Shown here one piece after another: positions 1,905-63,813 of a DNA stretch of 64,000 bases. Made by a program: the position numbers and the translations under genes. The stretch lies in IMG/VR virus record IMGVR_UViG_3300037339_000405, positions 1 through 64,000 of that record; one strand, written 5' to 3'. The stretch's first letter is position 1. Each line of letters opens with the position of its first letter. The DNA comes from a virus. The notes under the pieces were generated by a model. It saw only the letters and a list, made by a program, of their open reading frames with translations, had not been told where the DNA came from and ran no database searches.

Positions 1905-2877
1905 GAGTCACATGAGCCCGCAAGTGTTCTTGTAGTACTCCCAAAAGCATAGCCCCCGGGTCTTTGAACGACTCACGCTTGTAGCGCACAATCTCCACCC
2001 CCACCGAGTGCTGAAGTGCCTCCCCCACAAGGTGCGCCGCCTTGGCTCCCGCCATATCGTTGTCAAAGAACACGACCACGCGAGGATAGTAAATCAGCTG
2101 CTCCAGTTTGATGGCGCTAAGTCCCGTAGACAAGTTCGCCATGACATTGCGGTAACACCGAGACACGTTGATGGCATCGAACTGACCTTCTACCAGCACC
2201 ACAGGCTCAGCCGTTGTAGTGAAATGCTCGCCGTACCACACGTGCGCTGTGTTGCTCACCAAATTCCACTTGTAGTCATGATGGTAACGCCCCTGCACCC
2301 CGCGCCCTCTGGCCCCGGCAAGGTAACCATCTCGATTCCAGAAGGGTGCAACGACAGCCTGCTTGCGCGAATCCCAGCGCAGATCCCACCTACGCGCCCA
2401 CGCGGAACTCACGGGCTGCCGCCTCTGCGCGAGATAGCTACGCGCTGCCGGAATCTCTTCCACCGGGGCAAACTCCTCCAGCCACCACGCAGGCCACGGC
2501 TCAAACTCCGTCTCAGGGGTGTGAATCCTGTAGGCTTCCCAATCCTCCTTCGGGGCAACGAAGCCCGCCAGCCTCTGCTCCTCCAGAAAATCAAACGCTG
2601 CAATCAACTGCACATGACGCGGGCTCGGTCCATGCGTAGACGCGTCATGCATCAACTCCACCAGAAGCGTATCCACCGTCCCCTTGGTGTTACAAGCAAA
2701 ACAGTTGAAGTGAGAAGCGCCCGTGTCAATCGTGACCCCAAAGGAGGGCCGACTATCCCTGCCAGATGAATGACGAGACCAACCGAAGGGGCACGCGCCG
2801 CGCACCCACTCGTCGCCCTCCTCGATCTGGTCAACGTCCAGTAGCCCCAGCAGCTGTTTGATCTGATTTGCTTGCAT
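1885..2877 (-). CDS. dnaG: DNA primase (Zn-binding domain plus TOPRIM)
   Basis: CPF...H...D.RPSF...FNCFAC zinc-binding domain; TOPRIM motifs 'LVEGQFDA', 'FFDND.AG' and 'KDPG'. Confidence 0.92.
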   Translation of the reverse strand: MQANQIKQLLGLLDVDQIEEGDEWVRGACPFGWSRHSSGRDSRPSFGVTIDTGASHFNCFACNTKGTVDTLLVELMHDASTHGPSPRHVQLIAAFDFLEEQRLAGFVAPKEDWEAYRIHTPETEFEPWPAWWLEEFAPVEEIPAARSYLAQRRQPVSSAWARRWDLRWDSRKQAVVAPFWNRDGYLAGARGRGVQGRYHHDYKWNLVSNTAHVWYGEHFTTTAEPVVLVEGQFDAINVSRCYRNVMANLSTGLSAIKLEQLIYYPRVVVFFDNDMAGAKAAHLVGEALQHSVGVEIVRYKRESFKDPGAMLLGVLQEHLRAHVTLDIPRI

Positions 2878-2880
2878 ATG

Positions 2881-2905
2881 AAAAAATCCCCAGTCGCCCG
2901 GGGGT
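2881..2905 (-). terminator. Intrinsic terminator-like hairpin plus U-tract immediately 5' of the primase start
   Basis: Minus strand reads CCCCGGGCGACTGGGG-ATTTTTT-CAT-ATG. Confidence 0.55.
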
Positions 2906-2966
2906 AAATCGCAGCAGCTTACAGTCTCGGAAGGGAGCCCCCGCGTCTAGCGGAGGACAAATCGCG

Positions 2967-3398
2967 CTAATCCTGTTCTTTGGGTTTCCACGCAGCCTTG
3001 CGGGTGCCGGTACGATCAGACGCTACCAGCGCCGCAACTTCTTCCGGGGTGAGGTACTTGTCCACATCGCCCAGAGTCACCTTGGCGACTTCCATGAACA
3101 CCTTCGGCCCCATCGCCTTCTTGACGGCAGCCAGATCGAGGATCTGACGCTCCACCGGCTTCTCGCTGAACTCCAGCACCCCGGTAGTACCCTCGAATGA
3201 AACCACTTCATCCGGAGCCGCCTTGTCCTCAGCCTCGTCGCGCAACGCGCGTTTGATCTCCTCGGCTCGTTTGGAGTACTTGGCCACCGCTGCCACTCGC
3301 GCCACACAATCTGCATATTCATCCACCAACAGCGTAGTGGTGTCCGGCTTGACAGCCTTCTGCTCCTTCTGCTTCTTGCTCGTGATCGTCACGCCCAT
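2967..3398 (-). CDS. Hypothetical phage protein (coiled-coil)
   Basis: 143-aa ORF with an AGGAG RBS and its own consensus promoter. Confidence 0.75.
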   Translation of the reverse strand: MGVTITSKKQKEQKAVKPDTTTLLVDEYADCVARVAAVAKYSKRAEEIKRALRDEAEDKAAPDEVVSFEGTTGVLEFSEKPVERQILDLAAVKKAMGPKVFMEVAKVTLGDVDKYLTPEEVAALVASDRTGTRKAAWKPKEQD

Positions 3399-3428
3399 GT
3401 TCGCACTCCTTGCGTTGGTTGAGAATGT

Positions 3429-3456
3429 ATTATACCACTTAGTTGCCGAATGTCAA
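3429..3456 (-). promoter_or_regulatory. Consensus sigma70-type promoter TTGACA-N16-TATAAT with extended -10 TG
   Basis: Minus strand reads TTGACA ttcggcaactaagtgg TATAAT. Confidence 0.85.
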
Positions 3457-3466
3457 TGAATAGTTT

Positions 3467-4732
3467 TCAGACGAACTTCAGTTCCTCCACTTTCTCCGGC
3501 GCGATCTCGCTGAAATCCACGGAGTTGAAATCCCACTTGACGTGAAACTCTCCCACCTCTCCATGCCGTCCTTTGAGAATGCTGATAGTGCGCCGCTTGG
3601 TAGTCTCCACCGACTCCTCTTCAAACAGCCCGAGCACAATACTGCTGATCTGGCCTATGGCATCGCTGAACGCGATATCTTCCAGCCCACCTTTTTCCTT
3701 GCCCTTCTTTGCCTTCTTGGCAGCCTCGCGCGAAAACTGGTAGGACAGGATCACCGGAATCTGTAGCGCTGACGCAAGCTCCTTGATGCGCTCAATGTTG
3801 GCTTCTACTCGCCCGTATTTGTTCAGACGAGTGTCCGAATGCTTCAACAGGTAGGCACCGTCAATGACGAGCAACTGTGGCCCCATCTGGTGCACCAAAT
3901 CAAACACCTGATTCACTGTAGCACTCAAGTTGCCGTCCACTATCCACAGCTTCTTCTCTGTCTCACGCAAACGCCTGAGCCGCATGGCCATCAAGGCGTA
4001 GCCCTGCTTGGATAGTTCGGCATTTCTGAGGTGACGCGGGTTCACGCCGGAATGCATCGCCGCTAGCCGCTGCACTATTGGCTGGGCCAGCATCTCCATC
4101 GTCACCACTAGAACGTTATGGGCGCCCCCCTTTACCGCCGGCACCCCTTGCCAGCCTGAGTGTGCCGTGTAGAGACTGAACCACGTCTTGCCCATGCTCG
4201 GGCGCCCAACGATAGACACCACATCACCACCCTGTAGCCCGCCGTTTAGCTTGTCAAACGTTGGCCAGCCTAGATGTATACCCTCTTCTTCCTGCATGCT
4301 CTTGCTGCGGTACTCGGCGGCAATCATGTCGTGGGCTTCAGCGCCGAAATCCACAAGTGACAGACGCTTGCCGGAATAGCTCAGATCGTCCACTACCTCA
4401 CGCAGCATCGCTAAAGTTGCAGTGTGATCCTGCTTCTTCATCGTCGTGCTGGCATCGGTCAACACCGATAGCAGCCGGCGATGCTGGTAACGATCTTCTA
4501 CCTGCTTGAGATAGAACTCGGGGGGTTCGGGGGCCGTGGGGATGGTTTTGAAAGCATCCTTAACGGTCTCCATGGAGGGCAACACGTGATGATCGTTTAC
4601 GTGCGTGTCAATAAACTCCCACAGCTTTTCCTCGGTAGCAACAAAGTAGCGCTTGGCCAGCTTCAGCTTTTGATAGCGGAAGACTTCCCCCTGCCGCAAC
4701 AAGGCGGCTAGCAGCCGTGCCCCAACGTCCAT
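3467..4732 (-). CDS. dnaB: Replicative DNA helicase, DnaB-like (SF4)
   Basis: 'GRPSMGKT' Walker A, 'TMEM', 'VIDGAYLL', 'SYQFSR', 'SDAIGQ' and 'KGRHG' match the DnaB motif set. Confidence 0.93.
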   Translation of the reverse strand: MDVGARLLAALLRQGEVFRYQKLKLAKRYFVATEEKLWEFIDTHVNDHHVLPSMETVKDAFKTIPTAPEPPEFYLKQVEDRYQHRRLLSVLTDASTTMKKQDHTATLAMLREVVDDLSYSGKRLSLVDFGAEAHDMIAAEYRSKSMQEEEGIHLGWPTFDKLNGGLQGGDVVSIVGRPSMGKTWFSLYTAHSGWQGVPAVKGGAHNVLVVTMEMLAQPIVQRLAAMHSGVNPRHLRNAELSKQGYALMAMRLRRLRETEKKLWIVDGNLSATVNQVFDLVHQMGPQLLVIDGAYLLKHSDTRLNKYGRVEANIERIKELASALQIPVILSYQFSREAAKKAKKGKEKGGLEDIAFSDAIGQISSIVLGLFEEESVETTKRRTISILKGRHGEVGEFHVKWDFNSVDFSEIAPEKVEELKFV

Positions 4733-43398: not shown

Positions 43399-43794
43399 TT
43401 ATCGCAAGAAACGAACATCTTCACCGGTCAACGCAAGCAGATGGCCACCAATACCCCGGACGAATAGACCTGATCCTTCATCAAATCCCACCTTCAAAGT
43501 CTTGGTCTTGCCCTTCAAAAAAGCCGTGATCTCTTTGCCTGACACCTCTACCGTGTTTCCCCCTTTGTCTTTAACCTGATACACAGTTGCATTGGTCTTC
43601 ATAGAAAAACGGGGAGTACCCACCACATAGTAGCCGCGCTTTCCAAGTTCTTTGGCGGCCTCCATAACAGTCAGCTTCTTGTGCGGCGGTACCGGTGGAA
43701 TGGACTCACTTCCACCACCCCCCTCATCAGTGTGCTGATTGCCCCGAAAAGGATGCCCGGGGGGCTCACCGCGCAAAATTTTCACGTAACTCAT
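43399..43794 (-). CDS. Hypothetical head-module protein with a GHPFRGNQ motif
   Basis: 131 aa, ATGA-coupled to the protease gene. Confidence 0.65.
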   Translation of the reverse strand: MSYVKILRGEPPGHPFRGNQHTDEGGGGSESIPPVPPHKKLTVMEAAKELGKRGYYVVGTPRFSMKTNATVYQVKDKGGNTVEVSGKEITAFLKGKTKTLKVGFDEGSGLFVRGIGGHLLALTGEDVRFLR

Positions 43795-44399
43795 GTGGAC
43801 TCCTCCATCTCAACCGCTTTAATACCCTCTATGTAGCTGAACCTGTGGGCGTGCTTGTCTTCGCCGGCTTCCTCGGTGGTGGTGCCGCGCTTGATCAGAT
43901 GGGCATGACCTTCCACCACATCCGTGCGCCCACCCAAGAACTTGCCGGCCTCGTCGTAAGCGACGAAGAAGCGGTGTTCATGGTTGTCGGACTTGCTCGT
44001 AGTGCCCTCAAGAATCGGAGGCAGTTCCATCTCGATGATCGTGGGAGCCCGAGTCACCAGCGCTTCCAGACTGAAGCCGTTGATCACGCCCTTCTTGATC
44101 TTGCCCCATACATCGTCATTGTTGACGTGCATGCCCACGACCCACGCACCTTCGATGAAATCCGGATCACCCTTGCGGGCAATGAAGGACTCCACGATAG
44201 AGGCACCTTCGACCAGCTTGTTGTCGTGCTGCATGTCGATTGAATCGACCCGCTTGTTGCGCAGGAACCCGTAGGCCATCTTGCGGATCGTCGCGGCGTT
44301 CATGAAATCCCCCTCGGTGTCGGGGATATCGGGTGCGTATACCTCAGCCCACACCATGCGCTGCTCGTCGTCCGCAGCCAGTTTTCTTTCGCGCGTCAT
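43791..44399 (-). CDS. XkdF-like prohead serine protease (likely start MTRERK at 44399)
   Basis: 'VWAEVYAPD..D..GD.M....I...AY.F.....D.QH...VES..A...D.DF..G.WV.......W..IK.G..NGFS.E'. Confidence 0.88.
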   Translation of the reverse strand: MTRERKLAADDEQRMVWAEVYAPDIPDTEGDFMNAATIRKMAYGFLRNKRVDSIDMQHDNKLVEGASIVESFIARKGDPDFIEGAWVVGMHVNNDDVWGKIKKGVINGFSLEALVTRAPTIIEMELPPILEGTTSKSDNHEHRFFVAYDEAGKFLGGRTDVVEGHAHLIKRGTTTEEAGEDKHAHRFSYIEGIKAVEMEEST

Positions 44400-44442
44400 G
44401 GGTTCCTGCAGTTGATTGCAAACGCCCAAATGGTATCGCTTC

Positions 44443-44625
44443 CTAACGAGGTGGGTCAATGCTCCTGATAGGAAGCTTTTGCATCTGTAACCATCCCTTG
44501 GCCTGAGAAATGGCGGCATCCCTCTCCGGAGTATGCGTCTGCTGCTTCAGCTTGGCTATGTAACGCCGTATCTGCTCAGCAGGGGAATACACGGACACTT
44601 CCGGGTCAATCAAGCTGGCGATCAT
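44443..44625 (-). CDS. Small protein downstream of the MuF polyprotein (possible immunity or accessory)
   Basis: 60 aa, ATGA-coupled to MuF, with a GGAGG RBS. Confidence 0.55.
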   Translation of the reverse strand: MIASLIDPEVSVYSPAEQIRRYIAKLKQQTHTPERDAAISQAKGWLQMQKLPIRSIDPPR

Positions 44626-47600
44626 GCGATAGCCTCCAAGGGCTCGTGAATCAAGAAGGACGGGTTTATGGGAGGCATCTGCAGGCTCTTCAACACATCA
44701 ATTCGTGCCTGCACTGCCTTCACATCGATCAACCCTTCCACCATAGCCACATCATGCAGGAAACCGGGTCCTGCCTTCTCCACCACATAATCAAGCAACC
44801 CGTACCGATGCATCACCTGATTCACGAAATGCGTATGAGCAACAGCTGCCACATTCTCATGCACCCTTCCAGCTTGCACAAACGGGCGTATCGCAGAATA
44901 AAATTCTGCCGCAGCTTTCTGGTACACATCCCGATAGAGAAGGTTAAATTCACGCATCGCATCGATATTACCCATGAATTCTTTCACCCTCCCGGCATAC
45001 GTCGTGCCTTCAGAAGTCAGCGCGAGCATCTTGTCAATGCCCCAATTGGAGGCCAGCAGCATGTCCATGTCACTCAAGCTCCTCCCCATCGGGTGATTGT
45101 GGTACACCGTGGTACCTGACAGGCGCGCGGCCTCCTCCATCGTGAAATCCACGTAAGATTTGGTGCCCCCCTTAGTCAGCACCTCTTCGCCAGACCGATT
45201 GAACGCATAGAGGTATTCGCGTTCCGCGCTATCGGGCTGGTTGAGCACGTACTTGGAAGCTGTCTCATGAGCTTGCTGTACCGCGCTACGCCCGGTAAGA
45301 GGAGGCGCGGAAGTAATCTGCTCTATGCCTAGATCCGTGTGCACCGGCTGCTTGATGCGATCTGGAAATGCGGCTTGAAAACTGGGAGTGTCTTCAATGT
45401 TTGGAACCTGCCCGAGCGGTACCAGCTGCCCCCTGCAAAACGGATGAAATGGGGGGATATGCCAATTGCGGGCCACCACTTCTTCTTCGGTCATGTTGCG
45501 CAGCTTCTCTACGTCACTGGCTCGCTGACTAGGCCACGACTGCAACGTGCGAAGCTCCTGCGGATCGTCCACCGAGAGCACTACGTCCAACGTGTTGCGC
45601 GCTGAGACCACCGTGAAGGTGCGTCCATGCATCGCACGGCACACCGGACAAATCTTGTTATCCAGCTGCTCGTTTATTGCGTAGCGTTCCACCCCGAGAA
45701 TCTCTGCCTCGGACGTGAACCCATACGCGGCCACGCGCGTAGTGTGCAGGGCGCTCACCATCTGCATGTAACCGCGCCCACCATCACGGAAGCTTACGAA
45801 AGGTTGGATCAAGCTCTTGGTAAGCTCTTTGCTTACACGCCGGAGATGCAGGGGGTAGCGCGGCTGCCCTTCTTCTTGCCATTCCGCGCGCCAAATCACC
45901 GTCTTTCTATCCAGTGTGCGCACGGTCTCTACCACATCCCCAGTCCACGCACGCCATTCCCCAAGAGAAGATACCTTGTACCCACGCGTGCCTTTCTTGG
46001 GAGACACTTGCAAAACCTTTATCTCTTGGCGCCCTATATTCTTGAGAGCTTCAGCATCCGTCATGAAGAACAACGGATCTAAAGCGCCCCCCGCATTCTC
46101 GCGCCCTGCGAGGAACCGTTGAACAAAACGCATGCGCGTTTCCGTCTGCTCTACTTCGGTAGCAGGCCGTGAATAGAAACCTTCCCCCTCGCTCTGCCAG
46201 CTACCACCCAGTTTCCCCGCAACAATCTTGGGATCAGTAGAGAACGGGGTGTCTTTGGGCCAGCGCTTGTCAAGTGGGCCGATAAACATCACTGTACGAT
46301 TACGTGTCGATGCATCTAATTCCAATGGGATGCCGCGTTTTGAAACAGCGCCTCCCCAGATCCTAGTGATGAAATCCATGTAAGGCTGTTTGGCCTCTTC
46401 GCCCAAAGTGGCTTTGCCGATCAAGTCTTCTAGGCTCACTTTCTCGTTGAGAACATCGTGCATCAACAGCATCGCATTCTCGATTGCAACAGCCGTGCCC
46501 TTGTCTTCAGTGAAGCTGATAGTGTCCGAAGTCCCCCCACCTAGCCCGCGTCCAAGACCCTGACCTAGCTCCTCGCGCGTCTTTAGCCCGTGCTCCATGA
46601 CAGCAGAGACTGCCGTAGTAACGTGGTACAACTCATCGGGCAGGTTTTCTAGCTTCTCAGCCCCCGACAGGTTTGCCTGCAGAAAAAACCCCTGCTTCGC
46701 TGCGCTCTCCGGAGTTATGGTACCCATGGCAAGCGCTCTCATCATCTGCGCATCCCACGCACGCTCCTTCACGCGCTTCTTGTCAAAGAGTTCATGCACA
46801 GCCTCTGCGCTACCTAACCTTTCCACTATCTGATCGTAGTTCAAGCCCGCGACACCAGCATCTTCCATCATACTAGCGTCAAACCGCTCTCGTTTACCTT
46901 CCGGCGGCTCATTGCTGCGCGCCCACTGACCCCCCTCCGAAGTACCTGCAGGACTACGCGGCTGGTCGGGATCGTATTTTGTAGTGGCTCTACCCCTTGA
47001 AAACACCACATCGGAAGCCCGCCATACAAAGCGCTGCCCGATCCTTTTACTCGGTGCGGCTGATTTCAATGCACGCTGCTCCTGAGAAACTATCTCAAGC
47101 ATCACCATTTTGCGCTTGATGATCTCGTCCTCAGTAACCCGCATGCTCACGGGTACATCCTCCTGCACGGACAACACCCTGAACTTTGTCCCACGTGCAA
47201 GGATGAACTCATTCTCTGTGCCAGCGCCCGTGCCCAACCCTTTGTAACCTGCGGGCACAATAATACGGGCAACCACTTCTCCCGGAGTAAATGCGAAGTC
47301 CGCTGCCTTGCTAGAAGAAAGACTAGTGGAGGTGAAGCCGTTGTCTACAAACTCATCTCCCGCAGCAACTGCCTTCGCAAGCGGACCCCCCATGCCACGG
47401 TACACGGCAAGAGACTCTTTAAGAGGGGGTGCGCCTTCTATCGCCTTGTCTAAGGCCGCAACGTGCTCTTTGGTATAGCTCAAAGTTTCCTCTGACCCTA
47501 ATCCACTTCTCAAATACTCGTTAATCACTCTGTAACCAATGCCAGTGTAGTTGCCCAGAGCAATACCTTGTGCTGCTGGCAAGTTGGCTGTGTAGTCTCC

Positions 47601-48770
47601 ATAGTTGTCGGAAAGAAACTCTCGGGCTTTCTCCCTCTGGTCCCCGGGATCAGGCCCCACCTGCTCCAGAACATCCATTACACCTGTGTCAGTCCAGCGC
47701 CCTGCTTCATCACGCGGTTGGTCGGGGTCGTATTTTGTGATGCTAGGATTTTTTGGGTCAAACGCTCCGGTGTTACCTAGTGCAGACTTGATCTGCTCGG
47801 GCTTGAATACTCCCCAAGTCCAAGATTTACCCTCTTTCACCTTGATCCCATCGTAACCAGCCTTCTGTGCCGCTTCAACAAATCCCGGAGAGGCGATGAT
47901 TTGATAAGCCTTGAACTTCTGCGGCACCCCGTCCACTTCCTCATCTCCGTACTTGCCGACAGTGAACTCCAACCCAGTCGCCTTTCTGGCTTCCGCATAC
48001 GTCATCTTGTCGTTCATGTTGAACTTCAAGGTGATCGGCTTCTTCACGGAGAGCCACACCGGATAGACCGTCGGGTACTGTCCTTCATTCCACGACTTTG
48101 CCCCCGAATACTGGTCAGCGAGAACGGAAGTCACTCCGAACCACGCCACTGGATCTGTTCTGAACTCCTCTATCCCCGTCTCTCCAGTACCGTGTAAAAC
48201 CACCAACGGGGCTCCTTTGGGATCACGAACCTTGCTTTCCCCAAACCACTCGCGGAACTCGGGAGTGCCGGTGACAGTCCAGCGCCCCTGCTCGTCTCTC
48301 GGCTGATCTGGATTGAATTTGGTGATCCGCAACTGAAATGGATCAACCTCGGTGGGACCGAAATTGGTGGTGTCGTCACTGGCTTCCACGTCTGCAATCA
48401 ATTGCAGCATATCGTCCCGCAGCAGTTCCTCAGCATCCTGAAGGATCTGCCTGACGAGCAGCAGGCCCGCCTTGTTGACGACATCGTTGAGCTTGCCTGA
48501 CCCGGCCGCTGTGCTGCTCGCGCGCTCGGTCACGCGCGTGGCACCCACAAGCAGGGCCGCGCGTGTGTAGTACTCGATGGACTTGAGATTCTCGTCTACA
48601 ACTGTCTGCAGGCTGATTGAATTGGCGATCTGCGTTGCCAGCGCGTAGTCGCCCTTCTGCAGGGCAGACTTGACCTTACGTCCGATCTCGTTGGAAACCG
48701 TGAACCAGCTGCGGGTCAGCTTGTTGGCAAGCCCCTGCTCAACCGACAGGTAGGCTTCAATTGACGCCAT
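44622..48770 (-). CDS. MuF (minor head) polyprotein carrying two clear and one probable ADP-ribosyltransferase domains and a C-terminal JAB/MPN domain
   Basis: MuF motifs 'D.KICPVC..MHG' and 'PPFHPFCR'; ART-PolyVal-like 'F.EWFG.SKV.D..G.PLVV.HGT...GYDGI...F.P.QIKS..GN.G.FD'; VIP2-like ART 'VYRG..FTSTS..ENEFIL'; 'LYHVT' ART-like domain; JAB 'E...HNHP...SLSDMD'. Confidence 0.85.
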   Translation of the reverse strand: MASIEAYLSVEQGLANKLTRSWFTVSNEIGRKVKSALQKGDYALATQIANSISLQTVVDENLKSIEYYTRAALLVGATRVTERASSTAAGSGKLNDVVNKAGLLLVRQILQDAEELLRDDMLQLIADVEASDDTTNFGPTEVDPFQLRITKFNPDQPRDEQGRWTVTGTPEFREWFGESKVRDPKGAPLVVLHGTGETGIEEFRTDPVAWFGVTSVLADQYSGAKSWNEGQYPTVYPVWLSVKKPITLKFNMNDKMTYAEARKATGLEFTVGKYGDEEVDGVPQKFKAYQIIASPGFVEAAQKAGYDGIKVKEGKSWTWGVFKPEQIKSALGNTGAFDPKNPSITKYDPDQPRDEAGRWTDTGVMDVLEQVGPDPGDQREKAREFLSDNYGDYTANLPAAQGIALGNYTGIGYRVINEYLRSGLGSEETLSYTKEHVAALDKAIEGAPPLKESLAVYRGMGGPLAKAVAAGDEFVDNGFTSTSLSSSKAADFAFTPGEVVARIIVPAGYKGLGTGAGTENEFILARGTKFRVLSVQEDVPVSMRVTEDEIIKRKMVMLEIVSQEQRALKSAAPSKRIGQRFVWRASDVVFSRGRATTKYDPDQPRSPAGTSEGGQWARSNEPPEGKRERFDASMMEDAGVAGLNYDQIVERLGSAEAVHELFDKKRVKERAWDAQMMRALAMGTITPESAAKQGFFLQANLSGAEKLENLPDELYHVTTAVSAVMEHGLKTREELGQGLGRGLGGGTSDTISFTEDKGTAVAIENAMLLMHDVLNEKVSLEDLIGKATLGEEAKQPYMDFITRIWGGAVSKRGIPLELDASTRNRTVMFIGPLDKRWPKDTPFSTDPKIVAGKLGGSWQSEGEGFYSRPATEVEQTETRMRFVQRFLAGRENAGGALDPLFFMTDAEALKNIGRQEIKVLQVSPKKGTRGYKVSSLGEWRAWTGDVVETVRTLDRKTVIWRAEWQEEGQPRYPLHLRRVSKELTKSLIQPFVSFRDGGRGYMQMVSALHTTRVAAYGFTSEAEILGVERYAINEQLDNKICPVCRAMHGRTFTVVSARNTLDVVLSVDDPQELRTLQSWPSQRASDVEKLRNMTEEEVVARNWHIPPFHPFCRGQLVPLGQVPNIEDTPSFQAAFPDRIKQPVHTDLGIEQITSAPPLTGRSAVQQAHETASKYVLNQPDSAEREYLYAFNRSGEEVLTKGGTKSYVDFTMEEAARLSGTTVYHNHPMGRSLSDMDMLLASNWGIDKMLALTSEGTTYAGRVKEFMGNIDAMREFNLLYRDVYQKAAAEFYSAIRPFVQAGRVHENVAAVAHTHFVNQVMHRYGLLDYVVEKAGPGFLHDVAMVEGLIDVKAVQARIDVLKSLQMPPINPSFLIHEPLEAIA

Positions 48771-48774
48771 GGAG

Positions 48775-50946
48775 CTATTGCATCATCGTGTCGCCGCAAC
48801 ATGCCGCGATCTCGGCCAGTCCAGCGGGATCTCTACCAATAGCCGGGAACGTCTTCGCCGCCAGCAGCTGATTCAATAGCTCGCGCTCGTGTGGCGCGCA
48901 CAGATCCACCTTGTGAAGAATGGAGGCTTTCTCGATGGAGGAGTACTCGCGCGAAGGCTCATCCAGTTCCATCACCTCGGCCCACTGATTGGCGAGCACC
49001 AACAGATCCGTAGCAGTGTAGCCGGCCCGCTTCACCCCCGCTACCGGAGAGCCCACACCCGGCTGCACCGCAACTCCAACCCCGGCGGGCTTGGGTGGGG
49101 CAATCTTGCCATCAACAGCCGCTTGCGCAAATGGCACCAACTGCGGCGGAGCGTTCAAAGCCGCAGCCTGCGGATCGTACTCAAGGGTCAGGTTGGCAAC
49201 CTGATTAAGGTCCTTCATAAAGCTCTCAGCGCTGGCCTTGTCCTTGCCCATCTCAAGCCCTTTCAGTTGGGCATCGATGTTGCGCAGAGTGAGAGGCTTG
49301 CTGACCATCTTGAATTTGAAAGCCCCTAGCGCCCGGGAAATCGTGCGGTTAATGATCTCGTCAAACTCCTCCCGCTCAGGCTGAAACACCTGAGCCTCAG
49401 TCACCATGTAGCTCGTCATCGCCGTGGCAAACGAGTAGTCCTGCGCCTCTCCTAGAAACAAGGGGTGCAGTCTGAAGCCACGCCTGACACGGTTCTCGGC
49501 ATTCTTGTCGTACTCCTGAAACATCGCATCGTTCTGGCGTGAATCCCCAAAGCGCTCCACCTTCACATCCACCTTGCCAGCCGCATCAAGAGAGCCACTA
49601 CTACTCTGAGCCTCTACTACCGCCGCGCGCTGCTTACTCTTGGCGCCACCTGACAAGTAGTGCAACAGCTGCTCGCGCATGGTCTCCACCACTGACCCGC
49701 CTTGAATGAAAATAATCGCTGGCGGGATGCCCCCCGCGTCAAAAAAATCTAGGTTGAACAATTCACTCTTGCGGGAACCAACCACACTGGGCATCTGATT
49801 GATCCATCGCGGCATGCCGTAGTGAGTGCGGTAATCCAGATCCACTACAAAATGAATGACCTCGCTCGCCATGTTATCCACGGGTACCGTTTCACCCGTT
49901 ACAGCCCAGTCACCCTCTTTACGCTTTAGCACGCGCGAAGCACCAAACTCCTTGTAGAAAATCTGTTGGCTGCCGATGATCTGCACATAGCGGCGCTCCC
50001 GCTTGAGCATGCTGACCGTGCTCTCTTTACCAGAGCGTTCAATTTTCACCTCCACTTCCACAGGCTGATCAAGCTTGACCAGCCGCAGTGAAGGTGATTC
50101 CAGACTGCGGCACAGCACCACGTCATTGGCCGAGTTACGAATCACTTCCAGATAGCCGTTGCCGGTCATCTCCAGATCAAAGCGCAATGCGCGCCTGATA
50201 GTAGTCATGCTCATCCCGGGGTATGGCTCACCGTAGAAGTCCTTGAGCATCTGCTCTTCAGGATCGACAAACGGCGGGCGCACGTCTGGGGGAGGCTCTG
50301 CGCCGGGGGCGCCCGGCAAGCTTTCCGTTGTGGCCCCTATACCTTCTGGCCCGGGGTTCTGCCCCGCAGGGTCCTGCCCCGCAGGGTCCTGTGGAGGTTT
50401 CTGACCGTTCCCAGCGGGCGGGAAGGCTTTGGTGGCGGGCAGCCCCGGGATCTGATCCTGACCGTCTACAGGCGGCTGCTTGAGGCTCTCAGGAGTCTTG
50501 GAGCCCGGCGGCAACTTGATCGGTTTGCCTTCCGAGTCCTGCGGGCCATTAGCCAATCTATCCTGTACTTCCTGCCACTTTCGCAGCTTCTTTTCCCTGT
50601 CTGCCTTCTCTTGGTCAACCGGCTCGACTGTGAAGCCCGTGCCATCAATGTTCACCTCCATGGCCTGCACACACTGGAGCAGTGTGTTGTTCGCGTAGCA
50701 CAGCGCAATCAACGTCTCCGGATTGAACGGAGGCTGTATCGCCATCTTGTTAGACTGCGCGCTGGTATACAAGGATGAAAACTGATCCTCGTATGTCAGA
50801 GGTTGATTGGCAATCAACTCGTTCTCGGCGGAACGTTTGAATGCCTTGGAAAAGTGAACCGCAATATCGGCCGAACTACTACCGGATTTGCGGACGGGTA
50901 TTGCTTTGTGTGCTTTAGCCATAGTGGCCCCCTGAATAGCCAGCAC
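48775..50946 (-). CDS. Portal protein, with a Pro/Gly-rich insertion
   Basis: 'IQPPFNP..L......N..L..CV.AM..NIDG.G', 'D.E.TGNGYLE.IR', 'YG.PRW' and 'N..FF..G.IP'. Confidence 0.9.
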   Translation of the reverse strand: MLAIQGATMAKAHKAIPVRKSGSSSADIAVHFSKAFKRSAENELIANQPLTYEDQFSSLYTSAQSNKMAIQPPFNPETLIALCYANNTLLQCVQAMEVNIDGTGFTVEPVDQEKADREKKLRKWQEVQDRLANGPQDSEGKPIKLPPGSKTPESLKQPPVDGQDQIPGLPATKAFPPAGNGQKPPQDPAGQDPAGQNPGPEGIGATTESLPGAPGAEPPPDVRPPFVDPEEQMLKDFYGEPYPGMSMTTIRRALRFDLEMTGNGYLEVIRNSANDVVLCRSLESPSLRLVKLDQPVEVEVKIERSGKESTVSMLKRERRYVQIIGSQQIFYKEFGASRVLKRKEGDWAVTGETVPVDNMASEVIHFVVDLDYRTHYGMPRWINQMPSVVGSRKSELFNLDFFDAGGIPPAIIFIQGGSVVETMREQLLHYLSGGAKSKQRAAVVEAQSSSGSLDAAGKVDVKVERFGDSRQNDAMFQEYDKNAENRVRRGFRLHPLFLGEAQDYSFATAMTSYMVTEAQVFQPEREEFDEIINRTISRALGAFKFKMVSKPLTLRNIDAQLKGLEMGKDKASAESFMKDLNQVANLTLEYDPQAAALNAPPQLVPFAQAAVDGKIAPPKPAGVGVAVQPGVGSPVAGVKRAGYTATDLLVLANQWAEVMELDEPSREYSSIEKASILHKVDLCAPHERELLNQLLAAKTFPAIGRDPAGLAEIAACCGDTMMQ

Positions 50947-50975: not shown

Positions 50976-53324
50976 TCAATCCAGTGTGAGCTTCTTCAGT
51001 TCCGCAAGATTCGACCCCACTTGGCAATCCACCTTGAAGGTCAGCTGAGGATGCCAGCCCACTTCATGGAACGGCAGATTCTCCATGATCTCCTTGGACA
51101 AGCGCGCGTAGTACTCAAAATTGTTCTCGGGGAAATAGAACAACAGCTGATCGTGCACCATGCCCCACACCGGCATCACGGGAAACAGTCTGCGCTGATC
51201 CACGATTGCCGTGGCCCACAATGCCATGTCACTAAGGGTTCCCTGCACCGGGCTATTGATCGCCTGCCGCCCCGCCTTGCTGTTCATGTACCTGTCAGCG
51301 GAATGAATCAGCGGCAAATGCCGCACGCGCCCCAACGGGCTATAAACCTTGCTGTGCATGCGAGCGAAAGCCTTCTGCTCCTCATGCCACGGCCCCAGCC
51401 TACTATATAGGCTGAAGAAAGCATCTCGGGCTACAGTAGCCTCCTCCAACGTCATCGCCACGCCATACACGTACCACGCGTAATCCTTGAAACCCTCGGC
51501 GCTCATTCCATACAGAAGCCCAAAATTACCCGCCTTAGCCTTCTGCCGGACCAACTCGAACAGCGCGGGATTGGTGCGCGCCAGTTCCAGAAACTGCTCA
51601 AAATTCTTGTACCCTGCAAGCTTGGCGCCGGTCATCGCATGCAAATCGATGCCCTTGCGATACGCAGACAGCATGGTGGGCTCCTCGGCCAGACACGCCG
51701 CGATGCGCAGTTCCCCTTGACTGTAATCATTGGACCCGATCAGCCAGCCTTTCGGCGCCACCAAGCAACGCCGGATCTTCCCGGCCCACTTGGTGTGCTT
51801 GGGCACCGTCTGCCCGGGTGGGTCCTTGACACTGATGCGCCCGGTATTGGTCCCTCCCGCCGATTCATGATCATCCCCAGCGAACAGGAAATGCGTCGGA
51901 TGAAACCGGCCATCGGAACGCAGATGTTCCAAGAAGCCAGTGACATAGGTGTTCAGTGTCTTGGTGGCCTCACCGTACTCATCCAGCAGCTTGATAAACG
52001 GCCCTGCCTCCTCGTGCTCGCTGAACATCTCCAGATGTTTCATCGCCGTGGAGGGCTTGTTGGTCTGCGCTGTCTTCATCTTGGGGCGCAGGTTGAACCC
52101 CGTGGGACTGAACATCACATCGTGCAGGAAGCTTGGCTTGGTGAGATTGATCTCCCCGTCTTTATCGGTGTGCCGCAGAATCAAGCGCGGGCTCACCATC
52201 GACTTCACCTCTTCAGTCTTCTTGGCGATAAACGCGCGCACGTCGGCCTCAAGCTCACGATAGGCTTCGCGGTCCACACACCAGCCTACCCGTTCAACCT
52301 TCTCGTAAGCGCGTGCAGCCGGATGCAGAATCGTGGTGTAGAAACGAGCCAGCCTAGGCTCCTGCAGCAACTCCTGCCTGAGTGGCTCTATGACGCGGTA
52401 ACAAGCATCTGTGTCGCCGCCGGCATACATCAGAAACCGGTCAGGATCTGCAGCTAGCGCAAGATCCATGCGTGACTTGTCCACCATACGGTTGAAGCCA
52501 TCATCGTAGCCGCCAAGATCCGTGTATATCTTAGCGTGCACGTTGAGACTGTTGCTGCGATTCTCATCCACCAGTGAACCTACGAGCATGGTATCCATGC
52601 GAAACGTGGTGCACTCGGTGATCAGCCACAGCTTGGCAATCCAGTTCAAATCAAACTTGAGATTGGCGCCATACAACGCCACGCGCGGGTCAGTGAGTAT
52701 GAAATTGAAGTCGGCGCGCAGCCCCCACCCGATGCGCCGGCACGCCTTGCGATTAGCGAACTTGACCGCATCAGCCGTGCCTGCCTTGACAGTAACCTGC
52801 GCACTGACGATGTACCCAAGTGGATTGTAGGGGTCAACTCCCCGTGTTTCCAGATCCAGAGTGGTACGCACCGGTTTGCCCGTGCGTGCAAACTCGGCCT
52901 TGATGAAATCAATTGCATCGGTGAAATCTTCCACCCAGCGGTACTGACCCATAGGTGGTATGACAGTGCCCGTGTGCACCAGCCTGATCGCCGTGCGCAC
53001 GTCCATCATGGTGTCCACCGCCAACGCGTGGTCCACATCGATGATCTGTGCCGCATAGGTCAACAGGCATTGCGCCCCACACGGCAGCGCAATCGGCTGC
53101 GTGCGCAGGCTGCCTATCGTGCGGTTACGCGGCTTGATTACCCCTGCGTCAGAGATCAACTGACGCGCGTTAGCGCCCATGGCAAGCACCACGTCTCCCG
53201 TACCAAACTCAGGGAGGTGATCGCCTACGGACTCGAATCTATGTGGAGTGCTGGTCCCACTCAACGCTGGGGCCACCACCTTCTTCAGGTGGTGCGGCGT
53301 ATCCGGGGTCCACACTATGAGCAT
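50976..53324 (-). CDS. polA: DNA polymerase family A with 3'-5' exonuclease and an N-terminal UDG-like remnant (likely start MLIVWTP at 53324)
   Basis: Exonuclease motifs 'LDLET', 'NLKFD' and 'YAGGD'; polymerase motifs 'TGRIS', 'DYSQGELR', 'R..AKAGNFGLLYG', 'N.PVQG' and 'VHDQL'. Confidence 0.95.
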   Translation of the reverse strand: MLIVWTPDTPHHLKKVVAPALSGTSTPHRFESVGDHLPEFGTGDVVLAMGANARQLISDAGVIKPRNRTIGSLRTQPIALPCGAQCLLTYAAQIIDVDHALAVDTMMDVRTAIRLVHTGTVIPPMGQYRWVEDFTDAIDFIKAEFARTGKPVRTTLDLETRGVDPYNPLGYIVSAQVTVKAGTADAVKFANRKACRRIGWGLRADFNFILTDPRVALYGANLKFDLNWIAKLWLITECTTFRMDTMLVGSLVDENRSNSLNVHAKIYTDLGGYDDGFNRMVDKSRMDLALAADPDRFLMYAGGDTDACYRVIEPLRQELLQEPRLARFYTTILHPAARAYEKVERVGWCVDREAYRELEADVRAFIAKKTEEVKSMVSPRLILRHTDKDGEINLTKPSFLHDVMFSPTGFNLRPKMKTAQTNKPSTAMKHLEMFSEHEEAGPFIKLLDEYGEATKTLNTYVTGFLEHLRSDGRFHPTHFLFAGDDHESAGGTNTGRISVKDPPGQTVPKHTKWAGKIRRCLVAPKGWLIGSNDYSQGELRIAACLAEEPTMLSAYRKGIDLHAMTGAKLAGYKNFEQFLELARTNPALFELVRQKAKAGNFGLLYGMSAEGFKDYAWYVYGVAMTLEEATVARDAFFSLYSRLGPWHEEQKAFARMHSKVYSPLGRVRHLPLIHSADRYMNSKAGRQAINSPVQGTLSDMALWATAIVDQRRLFPVMPVWGMVHDQLLFYFPENNFEYYARLSKEIMENLPFHEVGWHPQLTFKVDCQVGSNLAELKKLTLD

Positions 53325-53799
53325 CGTCAATCCTCTTCCACTTCTTCTTGATGTACTCGTAATGTGCCAGCAGACACTGCGGCACTTTCCAGATGATGTT
53401 GCGGTATATGTCGGCAAGCGAGCGATTCGTTATGTCCCGATGCCCAGACAGGAACATGCCCCCTTCAGGAAACACGGCGTCACTGTCCCGGATTTTAGCG
53501 CCGTCCAACACCAACACGGACTGACGATCAGTAGCCTTACTGTGCACGACCAACAGAAACAAATCCACGCCCACATGCACCAGCATCCATAGTTGGGACC
53601 CAAGAATACTGGAAGCCTTTACCATCAACGTAAACTCCAAGTCTACCTCTCCCGGAAGGCTCTCCATCTGCACAGTAAGCGCCCCTGAGATCGGCAAGCT
53701 CACAGCACCTACATTCAGCTGATTGCGATCCACCGTCAACGGCATCTGCAAAACGTCAGACATCTTCTTAATGTGCTCTAGGATCACAGGAGTGCTCAT
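53239..53799 (-). CDS. Hypothetical protein
   Basis: 186-aa ORF, ATGA-coupled to the upstream gene. Confidence 0.6.
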   Translation of the reverse strand: MSTPVILEHIKKMSDVLQMPLTVDRNQLNVGAVSLPISGALTVQMESLPGEVDLEFTLMVKASSILGSQLWMLVHVGVDLFLLVVHSKATDRQSVLVLDGAKIRDSDAVFPEGGMFLSGHRDITNRSLADIYRNIIWKVPQCLLAHYEYIKKKWKRIDDAHSVDPGYAAPPEEGGGPSVEWDQHST

Positions 53800-62685: not shown

Positions 62686-63813
62686 CTAACCCAATGGGGC
62701 CTTTCTCACTGAAATCCTCGGCAAGCGGGTCGTCACCGGCTTGGCTCTGACCCCTTTACCAGTAGCGCTGTCGTACTCAGCAACTTTAATCGCCGGCTTG
62801 TCTCTTGCCACTTCGTTGTTGAACACAGACCATTTCTCAAAGTGAGTAGACAGCTGCTCAAAATTCTTCTCATTGTTGAAGCCACTTAGAATTGCTGAAG
62901 GAGGAACCAGCCTCCCACGCTGACCCGGTCCCTTGCCTCTCCACCTTTCCACCGCACGCTGCGCCGCTAGCTGCGGGGGCAAATGGACGAAAGCCCCCTG
63001 TACACTGTAACCAGCCTTGGAAAAACTGGTTATCCTATCTAAAGCTGGGTCATAGCTCTTCATCGTAGCGTCAAGAACCACGTTATACCCGGCAGCTTTT
63101 GCTCTTCGTGCCGCCATATCAAAAAGATGCCCGCTTTCCTCATGGTAAATGGCAGCCTTGGATTCCCAACCCTTGACTTTGTCACGCTCGGCCAGCCTCT
63201 CCTTGAAGTGATCGGCATCAATCACAAGAGTCTTAGCCGGATCATACAAATGCAGAGACACTGGCCGAGAATCACTGCGTGCACCGCTTTTTCCACTGCC
63301 TCCACGCCCCCCCAATACCAAAGCCGTTGGTGCAACACCCACCGGCGGTATAGCGTTAGCGGCACCCTTGAAGAACTCAACAAGGATCTCATCATGCACC
63401 TTCGTGCGTTCCGCACTAAAAGAATCTTTCGTGGCCCCGGCATGAACCATGTGAGTACTTTTGCCGGCAGCTATATCTGCGTCCACTGCGGCCATTTCAC
63501 GCAGAAACTCCGCATGATCCGCCTTGCTTAACGTAGCAAAGAGGATCTCGTCTTCTATTTCAGCCCTCCCAGACTGGGTTTCTACTCGCGGGTCGGCGGA
63601 CTCATTGAATAGAGAAGACGCGGAACCTCCGGGGGTGACCCTCTCTCCCGGCCGCGCATTGATGGCTTCTCGTACCTTTACCGGGCGCTTGCGCACCATC
63701 GCGCCACCAACACTGGCGCCTAACGATTTAATCCACTTACCATATTCATCCCTAGGCTGGCTGGGGTCGAATTCCTTACGGACGTTCTGGAAAATGGAAG
63801 GGATGTTCAACAT
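62686..63813 (-). CDS. Zeta-toxin-family P-loop kinase with an N-terminal DPxQPRD tag
   Basis: 'LGGRGGSGKS', 'VIDAD.FK', 'HEES', 'NVVLDAT' and 'A..RA..R....GR.VP'. Confidence 0.85.
   Translation of the reverse strand: MLNIPSIFQNVRKEFDPSQPRDEYGKWIKSLGASVGGAMVRKRPVKVREAINARPGERVTPGGSASSLFNESADPRVETQSGRAEIEDEILFATLSKADHAEFLREMAAVDADIAAGKSTHMVHAGATKDSFSAERTKVHDEILVEFFKGAANAIPPVGVAPTALVLGGRGGSGKSGARSDSRPVSLHLYDPAKTLVIDADHFKERLAERDKVKGWESKAAIYHEESGHLFDMAARRAKAAGYNVVLDATMKSYDPALDRITSFSKAGYSVQGAFVHLPPQLAAQRAVERWRGKGPGQRGRLVPPSAILSGFNNEKNFEQLSTHFEKWSVFNNEVARDKPAIKVAEYDSATGKGVRAKPVTTRLPRISVRKAPLG

Follow-up and report, generated by a model that had tools for sequence, protein, structure and literature searches.

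MuF/gp7 proteins bind the portal, number a few copies in each capsid and exit together with the DNA (PMC5576092, PMC5512222). The locus described here raises the question of what such a protein becomes when its chain is opened and filled with enzyme-like domains. The gene, P0001, lies in IMGVR_UViG_3300037339_000405, a 95,622-bp IMG/VR record with direct terminal repeats that is rated complete; the window analyzed is the first 64 kb of this record. The analysis suggests that P0001 is probably the MuF minor head protein of a complete phage resembling Stenotrophomonas phage DLP_5, turned into a polyvalent effector carrier. Four effector-type modules stand in one open reading frame (ORF) between the portal and head-protease genes, the arrangement expected of a polyvalent protein. 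Three of these modules, assigned to the ADP-ribosyltransferase (ART) fold with graded certainty, lie inside the MuF protein, each behind a short repeated peptide (tag), and the fourth is a putative JAB-like module near the C-terminus. The parts of the protein are as follows.

44622..48770, minus strand: MuF-family polyvalent protein gene (P0001), one unbroken ORF of 1382 amino acids (aa)
48351..48770, minus strand: N-terminal helical domain of the MuF family (aa 1-140), which aligns with DLP_5 gp003, PHROG 30193 and the N-termini of relatives
48273..48326, minus strand: Tag 1, ITK-FNPDQPRDEQGRW (aa 149-166)
47760..48224, minus strand: ART-PolyVal domain (aa 183-337); Pfam PF18760, E = 5.1e-19, 69.9 bits against a cut-off of 31.2
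47688..47741, minus strand: Tag 2, ITK-YDPDQPRDEAGRW (aa 344-361)
47157..47624, minus strand: VIP2/Alt-type R-S-ExE ART (aa 383-538); Pfam PF03496 (ADPrib_exo_Tox), E = 2.7e-18, 66.5 bits against a cut-off of 23.4
46920..46985, minus strand: Tag 3, TTK-YDPDQPRSPAGTSEGGQW (aa 596-617)
45906..46808, minus strand: third module, D3 (aa 655-955), a predicted divergent ART fold with large helical inserts, assigned from an AlphaFold2 (AF2) model and structural matches
45411..45818, minus strand: MuF / SPP1 gp7-like core (aa 985-1120) with the motifs C1041-x-x-C (CPVC) and PP-F-H-P-F-C-R (HPFCRG)
44946..45224, minus strand: putative JAB/RadC-like module (aa 1183-1275) with E1184, H1224-N-H1226-P, S1233 and D1236, in the pattern HxH-x6-S-x2-D
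44625..44945, minus strand: C-terminal tail (aa 1276-1382), kept in the relatives L017 and L019

An earlier note, made from the letters of the window without database searches, had described a MuF protein split by an internal array of three different ART-type domains and closed by a JAB domain. The order of the parts is as that note claimed, the ORF is continuous, and the MuF core, the split and the first two ART assignments were all borne out by homology. Apart from the JAB assignment, which is probable, the agreement lies well outside what chance would give. The core matched PHROG 30193 (E = 9.4e-25) and TIGR01641 (E = 1e-6) and carries both motifs. DLP_5 gp003 aligned with P0001 in two blocks, aa 3-127 with aa 4-129 (25% identity, E = 2e-8) and aa 144-330 with aa 985-1177 (39% identity, E = 4e-41), and the gap between the blocks is 16 residues in DLP_5 and about 855 in P0001. 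PHROG 30193, a profile of 360 positions, was divided in the same manner, positions 12-142 matching aa 12-146 and positions 157-274 matching aa 995-1114. The most similar MuF cores (46-59% identity) were those of five IMG/VR contigs and one metagenome contig (L013-L017 and L019), whose proteins, wherever the N-terminus is present, are all unsplit, 480-600 aa long, and run from the N-terminal domain through the core to one variable C-terminal domain. Because such contiguous homologues exist, the MuF protein is truly split by the internal array.

The N-terminal domain also aligned with the N-termini of P0013, P0015, P0080, L014-L017 and L019. This region belongs to the present MuF lineage but lies outside the 112-position MuF model of Pfam, and the interruption therefore falls in a hinge between two domains and not within one fold. 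Judged by its sequence, the core is a divergent branch of the MuF / SPP1 gp7 family; the homologue P0002, whose core is related at the 76-bit level, passes the Pfam MuF model with 30.4 bits. P0001 itself is a singleton in a collection of 5.8 billion protein clusters. Three proteins recovered through D3 (P0013, P0080 and P0015) have insertions at the same point of MuF, which open with a tag at aa 144-152 and whose content ranges from D3 alone, through D3 with a type IB topoisomerase, to modules totaling more than 2,200 residues. The topoisomerase module stands just ahead of the MuF core in P0080 (aa 544-794) and in P0015 (aa 2049-2289). In the 1029-aa P0013, an intein (Intein_splicing, E = 5e-10) occupies residues of about 545-799, inside the MuF core after CPVC.

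The first two inserted modules belong to two different ART clades, and their motifs are intact. In the ART-PolyVal domain, H193, Y221 and D307 are kept in 7-8 of eight domain copies, and this H-Y-D configuration is the one described for the clade by Iyer et al. (PMC5512222). In the second module, VYR458, S481-T-S483 and E519-N-E521 aligned to the Arg, STS and ExE of the Vip2 structures 9vej and 1qs2. Vip2, C2, iota and T4 Alt are R-S-ExE enzymes. By analogy, the VIP2/Alt-like module most likely mono-ADP-ribosylates protein arginine.

The third module, D3, was the ART call that the earlier note had marked as its weakest, and it is now carried by a structure model. Residues 618-985 gave no Pfam (E up to 10), PHROG, NCBIfam or PDB-sequence match. 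An exhaustive phmmer search over 1.84 billion representatives found 511 D3 proteins at E <= 1e-3, 186 of them at E <= 1e-30, so that the family comprises at least 511 clusters at 50% identity. In 153 examined relatives (P0001 included), D3 occurs both alone (43 proteins, up to 420 aa) and in very long chains (75 proteins above 1,000 aa, with a maximum of 5,944 aa). A scan of genome contigs with D3 found no relative. Thirty-five aligned sequences, whose members matched no relevant Pfam family, share the P of L-P, the H of L-Y-H-V-T-T, the R of K-T-R, L-G-G-G, the S and T of I-S-F-T, the R of F-R-E, G-G, the P of D-P-L-F-F, and the E and R of G-E-W-R as invariants. In P0001, the motifs read LYH(716)VTT, IS(752)FT(754) and GE(938)WR, and the invariant residues include H716, R732, G744-746, S752, T754, R890, E938 and R940.

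The AF2 model of D3, built from this alignment, had a predicted local distance difference test score (pLDDT) of 84.8 and a predicted template modeling score (pTM) of 0.84. When the model was compared by VIA-align with 48,161 chains, at least 44 of the 50 best chains belonged to the ART superfamily, with Z scores of 4.4-7.7, a range in which matches may arise by chance (Z < 8). The best matches were to Tpt1/KptA (Z 7.7, root-mean-square deviation 2.8 A over 86 residues, 17-20% identity), followed by pertussis toxin S1 (6.7), diphtheria-toxin relatives (6.0-6.1) and DarT (6.0); Rhs ART toxins, Arr, heat-labile toxin, exotoxin A, PARPs, RES and MbcT were also in the list. In the model, H716 lies on the first strand, S752-x-T754 on the second and E938 at the start of a late strand. 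ARTs hold their catalytic residues on such strands (first, second, and late or strand 5). The ART assignment is made because the list of matches is nearly uniform and the invariant residues appear to sit at the catalytic places of ARTs. Foldseek against the PDB gave nothing for the model at E <= 0.001; its weak rows were ARTs, including pertussis toxin S1, Tpt1 and tankyrase, and in BFVD the one significant neighbor was an 848-aa 'phage head morphogenesis domain' protein (E = 9e-6). Comparison of the D3 profile with PDB sequences returned only a repeat-protein match to 'EWR..TG.A', which was set aside as spurious.

Taken together, the model and the invariants make it very likely that D3 is a divergent ART-fold domain with a mostly helical insertion of about 140 residues. 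D3 resembles the NAD+ lobe of Tpt1/KptA (9ld3, 7kw9, 7yw2) in that a His stands on the first strand in [LV]-Y-H-x-T, but it differs in its helical insert of about 140 residues and in its own invariants K-T-R, LGGG, S-F-T, F-R-E and G-E-W-R. Membership in the Tpt1 family was rejected, as only the NAD+ lobe aligned (Tpt1 chain residues 87-180) and no Pfam match was obtained. D3 probably also uses NAD+, and its acceptor may possibly be a nucleic acid or phosphate. The Pfam companions in 44 multidomain D3 relatives were ART-PolyVal (5), DUF3293 (4) and GNAT (3), with one each of portal, RNA ligase, 2H phosphoesterase, inorganic pyrophosphatase and helicase; this is ordinary polyvalent company, and the substrate is not fixed thereby. 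Among the ART-fold matches of D3 was also chain B of PDB 9k3a (residues 1421-1610, Z 4.8), from a pre-ejectosome protein of cyanophage A4, a solved ART-like domain within an ejected phage protein.

The C-terminal module was assessed through its motif, its relatives and profile comparison. HNHP (1224-1227) is followed by SLS-DMD and preceded by E1184, and all seven copies of the module share the upstream Glu, a Gly, HxHP, Ser and Asp without exception. A motif scan of the collected proteins found the pattern, with the Glu on an initial hydrophobic stretch, again in four other polyvalent proteins at differing positions; first-round phmmer linked P0001 to P0016 (E = 4e-6) and P0016 to P0116 (E = 5e-4). 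The unsplit L017 and L019 have a homologous C-terminus (iE = 1e-19; about 26% identity over 200 residues). When the seven-sequence profile was aligned with four Escherichia coli RadC-family JAB domains, hhalign gave P = 2.6e-4 locally and P = 5.7e-5 globally over 94 columns, and in the global alignment Glu, Gly, HxHP and S..D were in register at a probability of about 40%. A second comparison, of three with four sequences, gave P = 2e-4 and a probability of 46% over a 19-column motif block only. In the ESM Atlas, eight of the ten best named clusters for aa 1176-1290 belonged to the JAB clan (Prok-JAB, RadC, DUF4329, Toxin-JAB1), with scores of 0.78-0.83 that serve as leads only.

Other searches with this module were negative. 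As a single sequence, it had no Pfam, NCBIfam or PHROG match; word-index searches found only P0001 itself and a 91%-identical fragment, a scan of viral contigs found nothing, and a hidden Markov model of the four E. coli RadC sequences had no significant match among 154 collected proteins. A tblastn match in phages to Microbacterium phage 'minor tail proteins' (E = 0.1) lacks the HxH motif and was discarded as chance. The terminal JAB domain of the earlier note thus stands in part: the motif and the hhalign comparisons (P from 2e-4 to 6e-5) speak for it, whereas the family models gave no match.

Three readings of this region compete with a self-harmful enzyme held in check by a small partner. 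The first holds that it is not a JAB domain at all and that HNHP..S..D arose by convergence or chance in an unrelated domain inside the capsid, which is possibly not an enzyme. The missing Pfam, NCBIfam, PHROG and PDB-sequence matches, an hhalign probability of 38-46%, the non-canonical spacing and one Atlas neighbor, a Phage_min_cap2 cluster with an equal score of 0.83, are in keeping with this. We nevertheless regard it as unlikely, given that the Glu, Gly, HxHP, Ser and Asp never vary among seven copies, several of which are barely alignable elsewhere and differently placed, and that the global profile alignment spans the whole RadC domain in register. The module resembles the E. coli RadC paralogues in having the Glu on the first strand, H-N-H-P and Ser-x-x-Asp in the same order and register, and differs from RadC and Prok-JAB in having six, not seven, residues from the second His to the Ser and in falling below detection by both Pfam models. 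On balance, this sequence evidence makes a JAB/MPN fold probable.

What a JAB-like enzyme would do here is informed by a small gene directly downstream.

44443..44625, minus strand: 60-aa ORF, with an ATG that overlaps the TGA at the end of the MuF gene (ATGA); candidate immunity protein or regulator paired with the JAB-like module

The overlap suggests that the 60-aa ORF is translationally coupled to the MuF gene. DLP_5 has no gene at this place, and L017 and L019, which share the JAB-like end, have a homologous ORF of 55-61 aa there (34-37% identity; BLASTP E = 1e-6 for L017), with the shared motif L-I-D-x-x-V-x-V-[YH]-S-x-x-E. As L017 and L019 are close to each other, this co-occurrence counts as two independent lineages. 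Comparison of cassette content among relatives, which the earlier note had proposed as a check, yielded five different C-termini, and the homologous small ORF was found with the JAB-like one alone; the other C-termini are followed either by a different small ORF or by none. The small ORF is kept only with the JAB-like end, which indicates that the C-terminal domain and the small ORF swap as a unit. Such swapping is a hallmark of MuF and other polymorphic toxin-immunity cassettes (PMC5576092). The pattern favors a putative self-harmful enzyme with its inhibitor over a harmless deconjugase.

The same pattern bears on the second competing reading, in which, as the earlier note suggested, the module is an anti-defense isopeptidase that removes ubiquitin-like conjugates, such as those on the cGAS enzyme of CBASS made by Cap2-type enzymes or the tail tagging of Bil-type systems. 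Ubiquitin-like conjugation does occur in bacterial defense, JAB enzymes such as Cap3 reverse it (PMC10097602), and E..HxH..S..D is the motif of active JAMM enzymes. A producer-harmless enzyme, however, would need no cognate small ORF, and this analysis yielded no tie between the module and ubiquitin-like systems. Moreover, the nearest profile is RadC-like (HNHP), a clade that according to Iyer et al. lacks the groove for the ubiquitin tail and may act on nucleic acids (PMC5512222). We therefore consider an isopeptidase very unlikely.

The third competing reading makes the module a cis-acting processing peptidase that frees the ART modules by cutting near the tags, in the capsid or after injection. 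Characterized JAB/MPN+ enzymes are peptidases, and Iyer et al. argue that polyvalent proteins need one, a role proposed for zincin-like metallopeptidases in other such proteins (PMC5512222); a Pfam search detected no zincin-like peptidase domain in P0001. Yet the unsplit L017 and L019 carry the JAB-like end without inserted modules to free, the XkdF-type protease is already encoded two genes away, and a dedicated small partner ORF better suits the inhibitor of a toxic activity. A processing role is accordingly judged distinctly improbable. The preferred reading is that the C-terminal module is most likely a RadC-like JAB/MPN metalloenzyme that would be checked in the producing cell by the co-translated 60-aa protein.

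The three inserted modules share a further feature, the tag. Ahead of each stands [IT]-T-K-[FY]-[DN]-P-D-Q-P-R, with G-[RQ]-W coming 2-9 residues later. Among the three internal tags, DNA identity is only 73-82%, which indicates that the conservation is of the peptide; a recent DNA duplication as the origin of the tags was rejected on this ground. In the D3-bearing proteins, 40 tags were found in 16 of 153, and none in shuffled sequences. A scan of the genome found the tag also at the N-terminus of a second VIP2-like ART and between a ParB-like domain and a third VIP2-like ART; these two genes lie just beyond the window, and an ADP-ribosylglycohydrolase gene adjoins them. Further tagged genes of the phage and of its relatives with an unsplit MuF are listed here.

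62686..63813, minus strand: stand-alone zeta-toxin-like kinase with the N-terminal tag VRK-EFDPSQPRDEYGKW
66243-67088, 67088-68431 and 68672-69664 (genome coordinates), minus strand: two tagged ART genes and the ADP-ribosylglycohydrolase gene (2240-3088, 3085-4431 and 4669-5664 in L012)
L013 2068-3525, L014 3640-4249, L015 10459-11124, L017 8823-9476 and L019 2556-2930: tag-variant genes downstream of unsplit MuF

The phage thus encodes five ART-fold domains in total, D3 being counted as one, and one eraser, the ADP-ribosylglycohydrolase. Every copy of the tag is preceded by Lys or Arg. Where a relative has an unsplit MuF, the genes that come next downstream specify separate proteins that open with the tag variants KYNANHDEKGRF, KYDPNQPRDKGGRW and AFDPEQARDANGRW, so that one cargo grammar serves both modules fused into MuF and free-standing genes. 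In T4, the packaged R-S-E ADP-ribosyltransferase Alt bears a capsid-targeting sequence that the prohead protease cuts. The tag may be a cut site of the XkdF-type protease, or it may direct loading into the capsid as the T4 capsid-targeting sequence does. Cutting at the tags would leave D3 joined to MuF, because the MuF core is untagged. The D3-bearing polyvalent proteins P0003, P0008 and P0012 have repeated junction peptides of their own, 'AAEDW..FRGPRGGTGWKNVRTG', 'AKHGDKGEPGY.LLHPG' and 'LH.GPGEHPSGSPQEVHG', which suggests that several unrelated tag dialects exist.

These results can be joined into a mechanism. The ancestral design, still present in the closest relatives, would have consisted of the N-terminal domain, the MuF core, one exchangeable C-terminal effector and a small cognate ORF. 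What differs in P0001 is an array of about 850 aa, with three predicted NAD+-dependent ART-fold modules, in the hinge between the N-terminal domain and the core. MuF would hold the protein at the portal during procapsid assembly, the neighboring XkdF-type protease may cut at the Lys/Arg-preceded tags, and the pieces would exit the capsid with the DNA and modify host targets early in infection. The VIP2/Alt-like module would mono-ADP-ribosylate arginines of host proteins, like T4 Alt, and as infection starts the packaged protein would altogether bring a JAB-like enzyme and three enzymes that use NAD+ into the cell. T4 Alt is the known precedent, a packaged ART that modifies host RNA polymerase (PMC5576092, PMC5512222).

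Several observations weigh against the view of P0001 as a MuF-borne effector carrier. The MuF core lies under the curated cut-offs of both family models (12.3-18.8 against 29.6 bits for PF04233 and 29.1 against 39.65 for TIGR01641), and no tag stands ahead of the MuF core or the JAB-like module. For D3, the Z scores, with a maximum of 7.7, are within a range that unrelated folds can reach, so that no single Z is decisive, and an hhalign comparison with ART-PolyVal was not significant (P = 0.068), although the His and the second strand do line up. For the C-terminal module, the Pfam models RadC (PF04002) and Prok-JAB (PF14464) had no match in the phage genome up to E = 10, and the profile of the module had none in PDB sequences. 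Its His-to-Ser spacing of x6 is one residue under the canonical JAMM x(7), and a single-sequence AF2 model was all-helical and, at pLDDT 43.9, unusable. Finally, packaging, cleavage, injection and every enzymatic activity are steps that we infer. With these points taken into account, we still hold an effector-carrying MuF protein to be probable. A bolder combination can be drawn from the same data: D3 would be a large unmodeled family of phage-delivered ARTs (at least 511 clusters) with an H/S-x-T/E site and several invariant arginines that acts on a nucleic-acid or phosphate acceptor, like Tpt1 and DarT, and not on protein; the JAB-like end and the 60-aa ORF would be a new toxin-immunity pair; and the PxQPR tags, each standing after K/R, would act as addresses or cut sites through which any cargo module could travel alone or spliced into MuF. 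This combination is tentative, and we think it somewhat doubtful as a whole.

P0001 as a whole was compared with known systems. Like phage-type polyvalent proteins (PMC5512222), it combines several unrelated enzymatic domains in one polypeptide among head genes; in those proteins ART-PolyVal is the commonest protein-modifying domain, up to 12 ART copies occur, and MuF fusions have been noted (PMC5512222). Unlike the published polyvalent proteins, P0001 has its modules inside MuF, between the N-terminal domain and the core, and not appended, and they come from three different ART clades (the third as modeled). Like the MuF polymorphic toxins (PMC5576092), such as the EFV toxin (MuF + ART), it is encoded right after the portal gene, uses the MuF scaffold and has a C-terminus that is swapped with a small ORF; it differs in having four effector-type modules instead of one, three of them internal, in a phage without temperate signs. 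The earlier note is correct that the MuF toxins described so far usually bear a single toxin at the C-terminus, with the addition that MuF-ART fusions and multi-ART polyvalent proteins have been published (PMC5512222, PMC9503650). DLP_5 gp003 (a 446-aa 'ParB-like nuclease domain protein') and the proteins of L013-L017 and L019 are orthologous to P0001 (25% identity in the N-terminal domain and 39-59% in the core), but are unsplit and carry a single C-terminal effector, which is ParB-like, a VIP2-like ART, JAB-like or unknown. The likeness to T4 Alt lies in a VIP2/Alt-clade ART that is presumably head-carried and injected, in a short peptide before the cargo and in a nearby head protease gene; unlike in T4, the cargo is covalently part of MuF, and the tag is unrelated in sequence to the targeting peptide of T4.

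Multi-domain polyvalent and multi-ART proteins, and MuF fused to ARTs of the Alt/VIP2 and polyvalent (N4-ART) types, are thus already published (PMC5512222, PMC9503650). The internal insertion site in MuF is new, as is the joining of three different ART clades within a single head protein. Also new would be the predicted ART fold and the candidate active site of D3, whose family of at least 511 clusters has no model in Pfam, NCBIfam or PHROGs, and, in phage MuF proteins, a C-terminal module of putative JAB-like type that comes with a cognate small ORF. Proteins injected with phage DNA act ahead of phage gene expression and are for this reason prime candidates for host take-over and anti-defense functions; as MuF takes cargo internally as well as C-terminally, the search space for such effectors becomes wider. 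D3 offers a fold and a candidate active site for several hundred clusters that are blank in domain databases. The three ART modules provide concrete targets for work on NAD+-dependent modification, and the JAB-like end with its 60-aa partner provides a testable candidate toxin-immunity pair. With the two further tagged ARTs and the ADP-ribosylglycohydrolase, the phage could serve as a compact model for warfare based on ADP-ribosylation.

The gene neighborhood is that of a head module. The order is portal, MuF ORF, 60-codon ORF, XkdF-type S78 protease, two unknown genes and a major-capsid-like protein (PHROG 1623, E = 5e-104), and DLP_5 has the same order, with portal, 446-aa MuF-like protein, XkdF protease, two genes and major capsid protein. 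The two genes that flank the MuF and 60-codon ORFs are as follows.

48775..50946, minus strand: portal protein gene (PHROG 12, E = 1.7e-23), directly upstream of the MuF gene
43791..44399, minus strand: XkdF-type (S78) prohead serine protease gene (Pfam PF14550, E = 1.2e-26; synteny with DLP_5)

The ATG of the MuF gene, at 48770, is 5 bp past the portal gene, and a position within the head module, between portal and XkdF protease, fits a packaged payload. All large ORFs of the genome are on one strand, and the genome encodes its own DNA polymerase. This is a family-A enzyme with a 3'-5' exonuclease domain (50976-53417, minus strand), directly upstream of the portal gene, with no terminase between the two genes. 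No DNA-level relative of the phage was found in the phage collection. The phage is an uncultured relative of Stenotrophomonas phage DLP_5 (96.5 kb), and it is probably virulent.

The lifestyle of the phage bears on a last alternative, in which the whole protein is a MuF polymorphic toxin as described by Jamet et al., a weapon of lysogens against competitors instead of a set of enzymes for lytic take-over or counter-defense. The MuF scaffold, the exchangeable C-terminal domain and the small downstream ORF are as in MuF toxins (PMC5576092). In contrast, the complete, terminally repeated genome had no match to the tyrosine integrase family PF00589, with serine integrases and other lysogeny genes left unsearched. 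The phage's own DNA polymerase and its one-strand genome are like those of the virulent-looking DLP_5 group, and the inserted ARTs come without visible immunity genes. A lysogen's weapon is therefore highly improbable in our judgment, and an effector carrier of a DLP_5-like phage remains the preferred reading. A minor point concerns the annotation of the protease gene, the longest ORF of which (43791-44519, minus strand) overlaps the 60-aa ORF. The true start is probably the ATG at 44399, because the DLP_5 homologue has 200 aa and the Pfam match begins at residue 49.

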